Virus record (IMG/VR): IMGVR_UViG_3300031992_000031
Span: 32,001 to 96,000 of that record
Origin: a virus
Lineage: Duplodnaviria; Caudoviricetes
Length of the DNA stretch: 64,000 nucleotides
Direction: 5' to 3' (one strand)
The notes below the pieces were generated by a model. That model searched no databases. It was not told where the DNA came from and saw only the letters and a list, made by a program, of their open reading frames with translations. Shown piece by piece: positions 9,294-32,104 of this stretch. Made by a program: the position numbers and the translations under genes. Every line of letters begins with the position of its first letter. Within the stretch, counting starts at the first letter, position 1.

Positions 9294-10193
9294 ATGAAAG
9301 ATTTAACTGGACAACGTTTTGGGCATTTAACTGTATTACGAAAATACGGACACAAAGGTGGAAGAGTTTGTTGGGAATGTTTATGTGACTGTGGTAATTT
9401 ACATTATGTAATTACCTGTAATTTAACTACGGGTCATACGACTCGTTGTTCTAAATGTTCTAATTCTGTTGTTGATTTAACTGGGCAAGTATTTGGACAA
9501 CTAACAGTTATTGATCAAAATAAAACCTATCGTAAAGAAAATAATATTAAAGGTTATCATGCTTATTGGAATTGTCTATGTAGTTGTGGTAATACCACAA
9601 TTGCAAAAGGCACTGATTTGAGTAGTGGAAAAACAACGCAATGTAAACAATGTGCTGGTAATCAGTTAATTGATGAAACTGGAAATAGATATGGTTATTT
9701 AACTATATTAAATTATTTACGGACAGAAAATCATCAAATAATTTGGCTAGCACAATGTGATTGCGGAAATCAATGTGAAGTTAGAATTAATGATCTACGT
9801 CGTGGAAGAGCAAAATTATCTTGTGGATGTAAATCCATACGTTCGAAAGGTGAATTAGAAATTGAAGAATTACTAAAACAAAATAAAATTAATTATCAAG
9901 CACAATATGTATTTGATAATTTAGTTGGGCAACGTAATCGTAGATTACCATATGATTTTGCAATTTTAACACTAGATAATCAAGTTCAACGTTTAATTGA
10001 ATTTGATGGACAACAACATAATATTAGTGTAAATTATTTTGGTGGAGATAAAGTATTAAATCGTAGAAAAGAATTAGATAAAATAAAAAATAATTATGCT
10101 AAAGAACATCATATACCATTAATTCGTATTCCATATGATAAATTAAGTAAAATTACAATTGAAATGTTACTTGGCGATGAATATTTGATATAA
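9294..10193 (+). CDS. Putative homing endonuclease: three DLTG.RFG.L/W.C.CDCG repeats plus C-terminal PD-(D/E)XK-like domain
   Basis: Repeats seen directly; C-terminal SKGE..IEELL, PYDF, IEFDGQQH, LIRIPY. Confidence 0.75.
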   Translation: MKDLTGQRFGHLTVLRKYGHKGGRVCWECLCDCGNLHYVITCNLTTGHTTRCSKCSNSVVDLTGQVFGQLTVIDQNKTYRKENNIKGYHAYWNCLCSCGNTTIAKGTDLSSGKTTQCKQCAGNQLIDETGNRYGYLTILNYLRTENHQIIWLAQCDCGNQCEVRINDLRRGRAKLSCGCKSIRSKGELEIEELLKQNKINYQAQYVFDNLVGQRNRRLPYDFAILTLDNQVQRLIEFDGQQHNISVNYFGGDKVLNRRKELDKIKNNYAKEHHIPLIRIPYDKLSKITIEMLLGDEYLI

Positions 10194-12551: not shown

Positions 12552-12689
12552 TAATTTGACAAAATTTCAAATTTATATTATAATTATATTGTAAAAAGGA
12601 GATAAGATATACATAAAGGGCAATTTGATAAAATTTGTTGCAAAAAATTAAGAAGTAAAATCTCCTTTCTCGCGGCGCAAGCCGCATAT

Positions 12690-12767: not shown

Positions 12768-12825
12768 TAGGCCATTACAGCAAACTTTGTAGAAATAGGA
12801 AATAATACAACAAACAATGGCCTAG
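12768..12825 (+). ncRNA. CAGCAA-hairpin small RNA candidate, copy 3
   Basis: Stem TAGGCCATT/AATGGCCTA, then ACAGCAA. Confidence 0.5.
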
Positions 12826-12945: not shown

Positions 12946-13098
12946 TTTAGAACTGTAGGCTTAGAAGCAGCCATCAGCTAAAGAGTTTTCGTTTCTCCAT
13001 TCGTGCGAAATGTATTATGGGCTTACGATTATACGCCCCATAAGTATGATGTGCGATAGATAATAGAAAATGAAATTTGGCGTAATAGCACATCTAAA
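12946..13098 (+). ncRNA. 23S rRNA L11-binding domain (H43-H44) mimic with ~90-nt insertion
   Basis: TGTAGGCTTAGAAGCAGCCATCA..TAAAGAGT and GCGTAATAGC match 23S nt ~1058-1100; closed by TTTAGA/TCTAAA. Confidence 0.75.
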
Positions 13099-13191: not shown

Positions 13192-13296
13192 TGCGGTGGT
13201 GGAATAGGTAGACATTTGGGGCATGACACACGTAAAGAGGTATGCGAGGGCGTGAAGTCTGGGTGTGTCCTGTGAGGTGCAAATCCTCACCCGCAT
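13192..13296 (+). ncRNA. tRNA-Leu-like RNA lacking a canonical anticodon arm
   Basis: D-arm GTGGAATAGGTAGAC; T-arm GTGAGG TGCAAAT CCTCAC; central long arm GACACAC/GTGTGTC. Confidence 0.6.
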
Positions 13297-13300
13297 TTAT

Positions 13301-13457
13301 AGTCCCTTAGCGTAATGGTAGCGCAACGGACTTGTATGGGTCGTCTAGGTTGGAAGGCCGGCTCGGTGTATTAGAATACACAGATGAGAAGAAGTGAGTT
13401 CGATCCTCACCCCATGCATTGACTCCGTATGTGTTGGTCCGATTCCAACAGGGACTG
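13301..13457 (+). tRNA. tRNA-Gln(TTG) interrupted by an 86-nt tRNA-like insert (13333-13418) in the anticodon loop
   Basis: Acceptor AGTCCCT/AGGGACT; anticodon stem ACGGA/TCCGT; removing the insert gives CT-TTG-AC. Confidence 0.85.
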
Positions 13458-13496: not shown

Positions 13497-14114
13497 ATGT
13501 TAAATATTCTTAGTGTAGATATGGATTGGATTATGGAACCAAGTATTAATTTTTATAATAATCAAGTTTCTGATTAGAATGATTTTTTAGCTGAAAATGA
13601 TGAAAGAATTATTATACCTGCCGATTTAAAAAAATATGCCATGATTACTAAATTAATTTTTTCTTTATTGTCATCTTTACAATTAAAAGATATATTTATA
13701 GCAGAGGGGCATGAAGAAATATTTAAAGCTATTAATAAATGGCAGCTAAATGATAAGTTTAAAATTTATAATATAGATCATCATCATGATTGCGGTTATT
13801 TATATGATAATATATCATTACATAATCTAATTAATGAATGTACTTGCGCTAATTGGGTTCCATATGTTTATAAAAAATTTTCAACATTTGTAAAATACAT
13901 ATGGATTGGAAATAAAAATTCATTCCCATTAGATTCACAACTTAAATCCATTCTTCCAGATTACAATATTTATGATAATCTTGAAATATTAGATAATATA
14001 AAAATAGATAAAATTTTTATTTGCAAATCTCGTACTTGGATCCCAGTTGAATATCGTGAATTAATTGATAGTTTTACATATTCTATTATAAAAGCATTGG
14101 AAATGAGAAAGTAA
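13497..14114 (+). CDS. UPF0489/arginase-fold-like protein (one TAG=Gln)
   Basis: ATG after AGGAGG; ILSVDMDW, NIDHHHD; in frame with track ORF 13641. Confidence 0.65.
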
Positions 14115-15652: not shown

Positions 15653-16129
15653 ATGCCTATTCTGTATATTATGTGCGGTCCATCTGGATGCGGTAAAACA
15701 ACTTATTGTAGTGATAAGATGGAGTTGGCTCATTGTGTTTATGTTTCTCGCGATGTAGTTCGCTATGAAATTGTTAAAGAAGAAGAAGATTATTTTTCTC
15801 ATGAAAAAGAAGTTTTTCGTGAATTTGTACGGCGTATTGTAGAAGCTATGACCAATGGCTATGATTGTATTGCTGACGCAACTCATCTTAATCAGTTCTC
15901 ACGCCGTAAGCTTACACAAGCCATTGATATGTATACTACTGATTATAAAATTATTTATGTAGTATTTAATGTAGATGCCAATACTTGCGTTGCTCGTAAT
16001 GCTAATCGCACTGGGCGCGCCAATGTCCCAGAAAATGTTATTCGTAATATGTGCCGTGATTTTCGCGCGCCAACTAAGGATGAAGATGAACGGGTAATTG
16101 ATATTATTGAGGTAGGTGATGATAAATGA
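15653..16129 (+). CDS. AAA_33 / polynucleotide-kinase-like P-loop kinase
   Basis: GPSGCGKTT, SRDVVR, DATHL, RNANR. Confidence 0.85.
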   Translation: MPILYIMCGPSGCGKTTYCSDKMELAHCVYVSRDVVRYEIVKEEEDYFSHEKEVFREFVRRIVEAMTNGYDCIADATHLNQFSRRKLTQAIDMYTTDYKIIYVVFNVDANTCVARNANRTGRANVPENVIRNMCRDFRAPTKDEDERVIDIIEVGDDK

Positions 16130-16696
16130 GTGAGATTTTCTTTACAAGTGATACTCACTTTTGTTAGCCATAATAAAGAATTTCTTTATAAGCCGCGTGG
16201 CTTCTCTTCAATAGAAGAGATGAACGAAGCTATTGTAGAAAGATGGAATTGTGTGGTGCCAAAGGAATGTGGTGTAATTATTTATCATCTTGGCGATATG
16301 GCACTATCAGATACTGAAGCCGCAATTCCTTATATTAAGCGTCTAAATGGAGAAATCCGTTGGATTCGTGGAAATCATTGCTCAGATGCTCGTGTAGATC
16401 AAATTCTTGCGGCTTGCCCCAATGTTCAGCTTATTAGTCAAAATAAGGATAATGCTTGGGCATATATATTGAAAGACGGGAAGTGGCGTTTTTATCTTAG
16501 CCATTATCCTACTAAAGTTGCTAATTATGATGATACTCCAAAACATAAAACCTGGTGTCTTTGCGGGCATACGCATACTCAAGATAGATGGAAAGACCTT
16601 ACAGATAGTTGTTATCATGTAGAAATGGACGCTCATGATTGTTATCCAATTTCTCTCGAACAAATTAAAGCTGAAATTAAAGCATTAAATATTTGA
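16126..16696 (+). CDS. Calcineurin-like metallophosphoesterase with a +1 frame break at ~16162-16168
   Basis: Frame 1 gives MSEIFFTSDTHF; the +1 frame continues HNKEF..HLGD..RGNH..SHYP..GHTH. Confidence 0.75.
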
Positions 16697-22427: not shown

Positions 22428-23651
22428 ATGTTGAATGCTAATTCTGAGCGCGAACTCGCCTATGTTGTATTGATTGACGGTATTGAGCCTATTCCTGGCT
22501 ATGATCGTGTAGAGCACGCAATTGTTGGTGGTTGGCGTGTAATCGTTCAAAAAGGCCAGTTTAAGGTAGGCGACCCCGCTATTTACTTTGAAATTGATTC
22601 TCGTGTACCTTCTAAGGAGTGCTTTGCTTTTCTTGAAAAGCGGCATTATAAAGTTAAGACTTTGAAGATGTGTAAGACTTTGTCGCAGGGCTTGCTAATG
22701 CACGCTTCTGACTTTGGTTGGACTATTGGTAATGTTGAACCTGAAACTCCATATATTATGGATGATGAACGCATACCTCATTATGTAAATGATGAATCTC
22801 GCTTCCTCACCAAGAAACTTGGCGTAACCTATGTCGATGATGAAGATAATTCTCGTAAGGCTCCTTCAGTAGATAAATACAAGAAGATGGAGATGCGACA
22901 TCGCAAGCTGTTTAAGAATCCTGTAATTCATTGGTTTATGCGTTATAAGTTTGGTCGCAAAGTAATGTTTTTCTTCTTTGGTAAGAAGAAAGATAAGAAA
23001 AATGGTTGGCCTTCTTGGGTCCAAAAGACAGACGAAGAAAGAGTACAGAATATGCCTTGGATTCTTAATAGCACCGATAAGTGGATTGCTACTGAGAAAA
23101 TTGACGGCACTTCTACTACTTTCACCATGAAGCGTGGCAAATTCGGACGTAAGTCTTTCTATGTCTGCTCTCGTAATGTATGCTTCGGTGAAGAAGATAA
23201 ACCTTGCTACTACGATACGAATGTATATTGGGAAATGGCTAAGAAATACGATATTTACAACGTGCTTTCTGCTATGCTTGATGCTCATCCTCATGATGAA
23301 TGGATTACTCTTCAGGGTGAAACCTATGGTGCAGGTGTACAGCGGCGTGAATATTCTCTTGATGGTCATGATTTTGCGGCTTTTAACTTGATTTTCTCTT
23401 CTCGTGGACGTGTTGGAACTGTAGAAATGATTACTATTTTGAGTGAATATAATGTACCATGCGTACCTGTAGTAAAAGCAAATATGACCTTTACAGATAG
23501 ATTTGCAACTGTAGAAGATATGCTTCTCTGGGCTGAAGGCAATTCTCAAGTAGATGGACTTCCGCGTGAAGGAATTGTATTCCGTACTCTCGACGGACAG
23601 AAATCTTTCAAAGCAGTAAGTAATAGTTTCCTACTTAAATATCATGGGTGA
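22428..23651 (+). CDS. ATP-dependent RNA ligase, Rnl2/DRB0094 type with N-terminal OB-like domain
   Basis: Motif I TEKIDGTS, QGETYG, FAAFNL, REGIVF, FKAVS; N-terminal IEPIPGYDRVE..GGW.VIV.KG.F..GD..IYFEIDS. Confidence 0.87.
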   Translation: MLNANSERELAYVVLIDGIEPIPGYDRVEHAIVGGWRVIVQKGQFKVGDPAIYFEIDSRVPSKECFAFLEKRHYKVKTLKMCKTLSQGLLMHASDFGWTIGNVEPETPYIMDDERIPHYVNDESRFLTKKLGVTYVDDEDNSRKAPSVDKYKKMEMRHRKLFKNPVIHWFMRYKFGRKVMFFFFGKKKDKKNGWPSWVQKTDEERVQNMPWILNSTDKWIATEKIDGTSTTFTMKRGKFGRKSFYVCSRNVCFGEEDKPCYYDTNVYWEMAKKYDIYNVLSAMLDAHPHDEWITLQGETYGAGVQRREYSLDGHDFAAFNLIFSSRGRVGTVEMITILSEYNVPCVPVVKANMTFTDRFATVEDMLLWAEGNSQVDGLPREGIVFRTLDGQKSFKAVSNSFLLKYHG

Positions 23652-30970: not shown

Positions 30971-32104
30971 ATGATTAATTATTTTACTAGTGAACCAATG
31001 AAGTATTTTGCTCCACCTTCTACTATGAGTGCGGAGGTAAGACGTGCCAAATTAGAACAAATGGTAGATAGTGGTAATTATCTTTTTGGATTAAAAACAG
31101 ACGGGAATTGGTCTCGTGCTGTAATTACACCTGAGCGTCAAGCATTACAGACTCGTGGTATTTCCACTGTTACTAAAACTTATGGAGAAATACAGGATAA
31201 AGTATTTTTCTGGGATGAAGTTTGTAGCGCTTTTAAAGACACCACAGTTATTCTTGGAGAAGTATATTTACCGGGCGCGATTGATAAAGACGTAGGTTCT
31301 ATCTTACGTTGCTTAACTCCCAAAGCAATAGCACGACAGAAAAATAATCCATTAAAATGGCGTATATTTGATGTCCTTGCTTTGGATGGAGAAGATTATA
31401 TGAACGTTAGCTTTGAAGAACGCATTCAATTGATACCAACGGTAGTAAAACGTATTAATTCTTCCCTCGTAGAAGGCGTAACATATTATGAAATGGATGA
31501 TACATTTTTTGATAAAATGGGCGAGATTTTCGCAACGGGTGGAGAAGGCGCAGTATGCTATCGAAAAGATTCGATATATATTCCCGGGAAGCGCGGTCCG
31601 CACGCATGGGATACCTGTAAAGTAAAACAGGAAATTGCCTCAGAAATTGATGCCTTTATTATGAGTACAGTCCCTGGCGAAAAACTATATAATGGTAAAG
31701 ATTTACCTACATGGCAATTATGGGAAAATCACCGCACCGGAGAAAAGGTTGTTGGTACATATTTTGGAGAGTATCAACTTGGCGGTTCATATATCCCTGT
31801 ATCAAAAAATTACTTTAATAATTGGCCCGCCGCGATTCAGGTCGGCGTTTATGATAGAAATGGAAATGAAGTACCATTGTGTAAAGTATCAGGATTAACA
31901 GAAGAATTTAAGACTTCTTTACGCGATGATCCTAATAGATGGATTGGTTGTCCTGTTACTATTGGTGGCATGATGGTTTCATCAGCTAAGGCAGATTCAG
32001 AAGGAAATGGTATCTCTATTCGCCATCCGCTTTTGAAACGAATTAGAGAGGGCGATTTACTAAAAGAAGATTGTACTTTAGCGAAAATATTTAATGAGGC
32101 GTAA
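30971..32104 (+). CDS. ATP-dependent DNA ligase
   Basis: KTDGN, GEVY, FDVL, EGAV, KVK, IRHP. Confidence 0.85.
   Translation: MINYFTSEPMKYFAPPSTMSAEVRRAKLEQMVDSGNYLFGLKTDGNWSRAVITPERQALQTRGISTVTKTYGEIQDKVFFWDEVCSAFKDTTVILGEVYLPGAIDKDVGSILRCLTPKAIARQKNNPLKWRIFDVLALDGEDYMNVSFEERIQLIPTVVKRINSSLVEGVTYYEMDDTFFDKMGEIFATGGEGAVCYRKDSIYIPGKRGPHAWDTCKVKQEIASEIDAFIMSTVPGEKLYNGKDLPTWQLWENHRTGEKVVGTYFGEYQLGGSYIPVSKNYFNNWPAAIQVGVYDRNGNEVPLCKVSGLTEEFKTSLRDDPNRWIGCPVTIGGMMVSSAKADSEGNGISIRHPLLKRIREGDLLKEDCTLAKIFNEA

Follow-up and report, generated by a model that had tools for sequence, protein, structure and literature searches.

An 86 nt tRNA-shaped insert, probably an intron, between anticodon positions 34 and 35 of a phage tRNA-Gln gene

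The tRNA-Gln(UUG) gene of an amber-recoded (TAG-to-Gln) gut phage is interrupted in its anticodon loop by an 86 nt element that itself has the shape of a tRNA. This insert is a real feature, and it is a variant of a kind of intron that was noted before, unexplained, in Lak megaphages. From comparison of related sequences, we propose that the insert is a tRNA-shaped intron that lies between anticodon positions 34 and 35; that it is spliced out by some route has a probability of roughly 0.8. We would give about even odds to one specific route, in which RNase P cuts at +1 of the insert, a second cut falls after N74, and a phage ligase seals the halves.

The window (the whole 64,000 nt stretch of DNA that was analyzed) belongs to a phage record of 133 kb that is ~75% complete, so absences from this record count for little; related phages have 130-190 kb. 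[quoted passage not shown] We infer a rumen Firmicutes host from a match to the cow-rumen-3 RNA, the promoter type, and the A34 tRNAs. The tRNA-Gln gene closes an RNA cluster with a sigma-70 consensus promoter upstream of it. The relevant features of the window are:

13301-13457, + strand: outer tRNA-Gln(UUG) gene with its insert, read from the sequence
13301-13333, + strand: tRNA-Gln(UUG) 5′ exon, positions 1-34, which in the preferred register ends in the wobble base U34; its sequence matches that of the empty allele L174 throughout
13334-13419, + strand: 86 nt tRNA-shaped insert (alternative register 13333-13418), recognized by its fold and by a free-standing homolog, L012:7215-7286
13420-13457, + strand: tRNA-Gln(UUG) 3′ exon, positions 35-73, with G73, no encoded CCA, and C55 in the T loop
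1864-1982, + strand: tRNA-Asn(GUU) with an unrelated 46 nt insert (1898-1943) consisting of an acceptor and T arm, at site 34/35; the comparison case in the window
12556-12584, + strand: promoter with a 12/12 match to the sigma-70 consensus, identified by consensus match only

Other RNAs and genes surround the tRNA-Gln gene. Directly 5′ of it (13192-13295) lies a tRNA-like RNA with conserved ends (a Leu-type D loop and a T loop) and a highly variable interior of 60-130 nt, for which there was no Rfam match; an RNA of this type is likewise found directly 5′ of the Gln gene in L001, L002, L005, L009, L011, and L180. A stand-alone mimic of the L11-binding region of 23S rRNA, carrying a long inserted arm, occupies 12946-13098 (L038 has two copies), and a phage-encoded tmRNA and the cow-rumen-3 RNA are at 8296-8620 and 4345-4440. 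Hairpins with a short CAGCAA motif repeat at 12768-12825, 3903-3967, and 4075-4140, and also just upstream of the window (genome G000 31544-31670), where the marked hairpin contains two tRNA halves in reverse order, the 3′ half first, that pair in a perfect 7 bp acceptor, the arrangement of a permuted tRNA-like RNA. In this phage group, several tRNAs, empty Gln alleles included, have C in place of U at position 55 of the T loop (13438-13444 and 8727-8800 in the window). The ORF just 3′ of the Gln gene (13497-14114) contains an in-frame TAG and has no Pfam or PHROG match, and the tRNA cluster holds free-standing GIY-YIG and HNH homing endonuclease genes (2376-3257 and 9294-10193).

The outer tRNA has a 7 bp acceptor stem starting with A1-U72, a D arm, a 5 bp anticodon stem (13326-30/13424-28), a T arm (13433-49), and G73 without CCA; A1-U72 and G73 match the suppressor tRNA of this phage. 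In relatives, the 3′ exon shows compensatory anticodon-stem and T-stem alleles. The anticodon loop is 93 nt long, compared with the normal 7 nt, and the insert within it comprises an acceptor stem (13334-40/13411-17), a D-like arm (13343-58), a non-canonical middle stem with a hairpin (13362-88), a T arm (13394-13410), A73 (13418), and a 2 nt tail that ends at 13419. It has neither an anticodon loop nor CCA. Pairing is complete in the inner acceptor (7/7) and the inner T arm (5/5), with pair probabilities of 0.98-1.0, and among 20,000 dinucleotide-shuffled versions of the insert, 1 combined a T arm with a 7/7 acceptor in the same geometry. The first-pass annotation had described a tRNA-shaped 86 nt element that splits tRNA-Gln(TTG), with an acceptor, a T arm, and A73 but no CCA, and these results support that description.

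The remaining parts of the element are less tRNA-like than had been supposed. The inner D arm is visible as sequence identity with the free-standing homolog, its one line of support, but the D stem has a pair probability of 0.004 in the computed ensemble. The middle arm, previously read as GTGTATT/AATACAC, is instead a 6 bp hairpin (13366-71/13376-81) with a 4 nt loop, enclosed in the loop of a non-canonical stem (13362-64/13386-88) made of two G.A plus 3 bp; this stem closes on an 8 nt loop in the free form and on the hairpin in the nested form. The inner element does not qualify as a decoding tRNA (5 bp anticodon stem, 7 nt loop, and U33), and it scores 23.3 bits against the Rfam tRNA model, under the cut-off of 29. 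In its intron mode ARAGORN reports an 86 nt intron in the Gln gene, with wrong boundaries and a wrong tRNA-Thr identity; its relaxed modes returned noise. An assembly artifact is ruled out by the presence of the insert in 8 loci with different flanks.

We located relatives of the Gln gene by searching with its 5′ exon and found the same gene in five states:

Empty, with anticodon TTG: L174, L177, L178, L182, and L009 (5 loci)
With this 86 nt insert: 8 loci (our own and seven others)
With an unrelated 43 nt mini-tRNA ending in ACCA, at site 34/35: L173 and L176
With an unrelated 83 nt insert, at site 35/36, with the tail AC: L181
With an HNH cassette in the anticodon arm, bringing its own replacement tRNA-Gln: L011 and L180

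The three unrelated inserts have tails of 2, 2, and 4 nt and occupy sites 34/35 and 35/36. In the seven other loci, the 86 nt insert carries at most one internal substitution, while the neighborhoods and the outer alleles differ; the anticodon and T stems of these outer alleles are compensated, and in L006 recombination has left the anticodon stem mismatched. The near-identity of the eight nested copies indicates recent spread, and such copies do not establish long-term selection in the nested state; with 2 SNPs, covariation among the nested copies alone was uninformative. The HNH gene of the fifth state contains an in-frame TAG and is accompanied by a replacement tRNA-Gln(TTG) (L011:7619-8180, L180:4496-5055, and also L179); the cassette sits in the anticodon arm of the same tRNA-Gln gene and leaves both tRNA halves behind.

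The states also differ in whether another glutamine tRNA gene is present. An intact Gln(TTG) gene is absent from five near-complete phages whose Gln gene is nested, whereas HNH-split and empty-allele phages have exactly one each. In our own record (~75% complete), the split gene is the sole glutamine(UUG) tRNA gene found. The lack of a spare gene in nested carriers, compared with its presence in HNH-split phages, suggests that the nested gene still yields a tRNA.

The free-standing homolog (L012:7215-7286) lies in the tRNA cluster of the related phage G006. It matches the insert over the entire D-like arm and the purine-rich linker and lacks the inner hairpin, and it keeps 100% of the stem pairs, with compensatory changes at 3 acceptor, 2 T-stem, and 1 middle-stem pairs; whether a seventh pair counts depends on how the sequences are aligned. 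Pair conservation as high as that observed occurred in 0 of 500 shuffles, in a covariation set of only 4 sequences that compares nested with free forms. The homolog scores 30.1 bits against the Rfam tRNA model, aligned from G(+1) to G73, and it has A at -1 and no usable anticodon loop. A covariance model search recovered this one free homolog, and the next best matches examined (L330 and L331) were ordinary tRNAs. Because a free homolog exists whose stems change in a pair-keeping manner, we rejected a neutral recombination scar; the insert belongs to a small family of tRNA-like phage RNAs, and the structural conservation for which a covariance analysis had been suggested is supported, with all stem pairs kept and six compensatory changes. 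The homolog also indicates where such an intron comes from. The insert of L113 has a free paralog on the same contig, and in L065 and L133 the insert is an ordinary tRNA in full.

We scanned IMG/VR for two T loops 27-34 nt apart and then applied a nested-tRNA grammar, which gave at least 51 well-parsed nested cases with at least 48 distinct inserts. Among the matches listed, the outer tRNAs are Lys, Gln, Asn, Ile, Thr, Glu, Arg, Pro, and Leu, and the inserts start at the inner +1 and occupy sites 34/35, 35/36, and 36/37. The tail past the acceptor stem, again among the matches listed, is 4 nt and mostly NCCA (36), 2 nt ending in N74 (9), or 1 nt ending in N73 (6); none of the 51 has a 3 nt (NCC) tail. 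Removal of the insert restores a 7 nt loop in these 51 matches, with an anticodon that mostly matches the outer body. The inner D and anticodon arms of the matches listed range from absent to complete, and the acceptor and T arm are kept; the search itself dictated the T-loop consensus, and acceptor pairing was partly a filter, but 7/7 acceptor pairing in most of these cases is far above the shuffle rate.

A scan with a second T-loop pattern gave mostly chance matches, as did a scan of GTDB, in which the few nested cases were on MAG contigs of unclear origin; the sole 33/34 site among the matches listed in the survey proved to be a mis-parse of a different insert design. A second design is present in Tyr/Cys/Phe-like tRNAs (L076, L089 [three], L098, L109, L152, and L172) and resembles the Lak tRNA-Tyr intron, having a T-arm-like end without a clean +1-to-CCA acceptor. 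Nested tRNA-shaped inserts were also seen in L279, L321, and L272/L303/L309, which are on GC-rich MAG contigs (Planctomycetota, Proteobacteria, and Armatimonas) with few tRNAs nearby, and thus the class may extend beyond phages. The 86 nt sequence has no blastn match among GenBank phages, with the Lak introns (Table S6) compared by description only.

An insert of this kind could also be a passenger whose flanks are never rejoined. A mature tRNA-like RNA would have been mis-ligated into a broken anticodon loop and then copied into DNA, killing a dispensable phage tRNA, and what matters would be the inner RNA (as a decoy or mimic) or immunity to homing endonucleases at the DNA level, so that the element would be selfish or protective. 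The boundaries are mature tRNA ends, which fit an origin by ligation as well as they fit processing; free-standing relatives exist (L012 and the paralog of L113), the nearly identical copies point to a young insertion, and the recombined L006 allele has its mismatched stem. However, the outer tRNAs are canonical in ~50 unrelated cases listed, with inserts degenerated to an acceptor and T arm, and random truncated tRNAs should give the 3 nt tails that do not occur among the matches listed. Carriers also have no spare gene, whereas HNH-disrupted alleles bring one. We therefore regard this explanation as fairly unlikely.

The exact boundaries of the insert bear on how it would be removed. Relative to the empty allele L174, two registers fit (13333-13418 and 13334-13419), and both give the same 71 nt tRNA; the earlier statement that removing 13333-13418 restores a normal loop thus holds, but 13334-13419 does so too. 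The first-pass annotation had preferred the former, with U13333-A13418 extending the acceptor to 8 bp, and RNase P cutting at -1 in the manner of tRNA-His; an RNase Z cut after A73 and ligation at site 33/34 would complete this route. The U-A pair can indeed form (p 0.93), 8 bp acceptors redirect RNase P in tRNA-His and tRNA-Sec, and the identical mature tRNA would result from textbook cut sites only; L006 would then read tRNA-Gln(CTG), which is synonymous, and L279 likewise Lys(CTT). Because the pair is stable and there is no CCA to anchor RNase P at +1, the -1 route keeps some probability for the Gln insert.

Comparison with other inserts argues against it. The free homolog starts at G(+1), which corresponds to 13334, and has A-1 and G73, which places U13333 outside the element. 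Of the 36 CCA-ended inserts among the matches listed, 25 could form a -1/73 pair, and these must be cut at +1 because a -1 cut would destroy the anticodon. In the same Gln gene, L181 combines U-1/A73 with a 2 nt tail, and the -1 rule yields TCG, whereas +1 with a cut after N74 yields TTG. Across the seven independent 2 nt-tail inserts among the matches listed, the -1/N73 rule gives a wrong anticodon or is unpairable in four (L181, L168, L179, and L321), and the +1/N74 rule gives no conflict with the outer body. The empty alleles have TTG in 5/5 and CTG in none, and no well-parsed 33/34 site occurs among the 51 matches listed. The insert thus does not fit a tRNA-His-like arrangement, in which the boundary would follow from a -1/73 pair within the element, and the -1 route is quite unlikely. 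We favor the boundaries 13334-13419 and site 34/35, a site common to the 43 nt insert of the Gln gene and to the Asn insert of the window. The first-pass annotation had noted that the Gln and Asn genes carry unrelated inserts of the same architecture at nearly the same site; in this register, the site is exactly 34/35 for both.

In the route that we propose, a tRNA-like phage RNA that lodged in the anticodon loop would have given rise to the intron, which would adopt a tRNA fold within the folded outer tRNA. RNase P of the host would cut at the inner +1, leaving a 3′-OH on U34, and a second cut two nt past the inner acceptor stem would leave a 5′-phosphate on U35; a candidate for this second activity is an RNase Z-like enzyme, or a cut followed by one-base trimming. 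The phage ATP-dependent ligase would join the halves, producing normal tRNA-Gln(UUG) and a freed tRNA-like RNA. RNase P and RNase Z leave 3′-OH/5′-P ends, and such ends are the chemistry sealed by Rnl5 ligases. The acceptor and T arm are the parts recognized by RNase P (PMC11143913), and the cut sites described for RNase Z, which leaves a 3′-OH, lie behind N73 or CCA and do not include N74 (PMC7479834). Our record (~75% complete) yielded no RtcB, RNase Z, or RNase P RNA, so the nucleases would be those of the host; RtcB was absent from five complete carriers as well. The candidate phage enzymes are:

22428-23651, + strand: ATP-dependent RNA ligase of the DraRnl/Rnl5 type with an N-terminal OB domain (PF09414 + PF21189, phrog_968), the putative sealing enzyme
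15653-16696, + strand: AAA_33 kinase and metallophosphoesterase genes, a possible RNA end-healing pair

The ligase matches TIGR02306 under the cut-off and aligns with NgrRnl 5COT (E 2e-27), including the motif I lysine. Ligases of the DraRnl type, whose OB domain resembles a tRNA synthetase domain, seal duplex nicks and do not circularize single strands (PMC1807946). As a break in the anticodon loop is single-stranded, this preference counts against the ligase step; the 3′ boundary, which lies 1, 2, or 4 nt past the stem among the matches listed and not at one fixed distance, likewise counts against the proposed route. An ATP RNA ligase is encoded by 15/15 near-complete carriers and 6/9 comparison phages (p ~0.04, for phages that are not phylogenetically independent), and this co-occurrence carries little weight, given that the ligase is also encoded by insert-free relatives.

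A dedicated enzyme of phage or host that measures the outer anticodon arm or recognizes the inner fold could take the place of RNase P and RNase Z. Heterogeneous 3′ tails together with exact restoration of 7 nt suggest that the outer loop is read, and the phage has a kinase, phosphoesterases, a nucleotidyltransferase, and many unannotated genes. Against this, the 5′ boundary of unrelated inserts is at the inner +1, which is exactly the site of RNase P, and our record (~75% complete) yielded no candidate endonuclease and no RtcB; such an enzyme is decidedly unlikely. Ligation of ends cut at +1 and N73, which would use textbook sites only and give a 72 nt tRNA with an 8 nt anticodon loop that still works or shifts frame, is most improbable, because loops of exactly 7 nt result in the 42 other listed cases with 1 nt or 4 nt tails, the loops of empty alleles have this length too, and the tRNAs of seven independent inserts would all have to accommodate the extra base.

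The presence of an HNH cassette in the anticodon arm of the Gln gene suggests that inserts may deprive an endonuclease of its target and hitch-hike through gene conversion, in the manner of collaborative homing (PMC10448857). Gene conversion would probably carry the 86 nt insert from phage to phage, with the help of HNH endonucleases that enter this arm and to which the interrupted gene would be immune.

Lak megaphage tRNA introns were called “enigmatic” (Devoto et al., 2019; PMC6784885, Fig. 4, Table S6), one of them was said to “itself encode a tRNA” (PMC6784885), and a jumbo phage survey of 2026 counted such introns again (PMC13037316); neither paper gives a boundary rule, mechanism, or origin for them. 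Our literature search found no mechanistic paper on tRNA-like introns or nested tRNAs in phages. Like the Lak introns, the Gln insert is located in the anticodon loop of a tRNA from a code-15 gut phage, is optional, and is near-identical where shared, and Lak phages also encode an RNA ligase; the canonical outer tRNA, the empty alleles, the restoration of 7 nt, and the tRNA shape agree as well. Unlike the Lak reports, our case concerns tRNA-Gln in a smaller phage and an insert with a 2 nt tail and no anticodon loop, and it includes a free-standing homolog and one gene that is host to three unrelated inserts and an HNH cassette.

Group I introns of bacterial and phage tRNAs are also optional, mobile, and located in the anticodon loop, but the Gln insert folds as a tRNA. 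We rejected a group I intron because 86 nt is too short for the P3-P9 core (~200 nt or more) and the insert ends in U, not G; it has no Rfam intron match. Group-I-intron-like inserts of ~320 nt are present in tRNA-Leu(UAA) of related phages (L017:7671-8072, L038:11082-11483, and L021:2208-2528). In archaeal and eukaryotic tRNA introns (EndA/TSEN with RtcB or Trl1), as in the proposed route, proteins remove the intron from the anticodon loop and the ends are then ligated. However, those introns are mostly at 37/38, and the Gln insert is at 34/35 with boundaries at the inner tRNA ends; its predicted fold has no bulge-helix-bulge motif, and the predicted ends are 3′-OH/5′-P, not cyclic phosphate/5′-OH, in a record without RtcB. 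Phage T4 Pnk and Rnl1 repair tRNA-Lys cut by PrrC, a case in which a phage ligase reseals an anticodon loop; in the Gln gene, by comparison, the break is genetically programmed and the ligase is of the Rnl5 type, not Rnl1. Processing signals of the mascRNA type are tRNA mimics that bring RNase P and RNase Z to a transcript for cleavage, but we know of no case in which the flanks of a tRNA mimic excised by RNase P/Z are rejoined.

What is new here is the five-state allelic series, the test of register, and the free-standing homolog with its covariation. The Gln locus is an unusually good test system: a single 71 nt gene is available in an empty form, in forms with three unrelated inserts, and in a form split by an HNH cassette. 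Annotation tools mis-call this gene (ARAGORN makes it tRNA-Thr), and phage tRNA sets are miscounted as a result. The splicing route probably uses tRNA-trimming enzymes and a phage RNA ligase, a combination not known from any system described so far. We would put a little less than even odds on the broader reading that phages have a distinct form of tRNA splicing, in which a tRNA-mimic intron is excised by host end-processing nucleases and sealed by an Rnl5-type phage ligase, new introns arise by ligation of free tRNA-like phage RNAs into broken anticodon loops, and the inserts shield the gene against homing endonucleases and possibly the precursor RNA against anticodon nucleases. If the insert is spliced as we propose, it would represent a new tRNA splicing chemistry, with 3′-OH/5′-P ends made by end-processing enzymes; the “enigmatic” Lak introns would be explained, and the uncharted Rnl5 ligase family would gain a physiological substrate.
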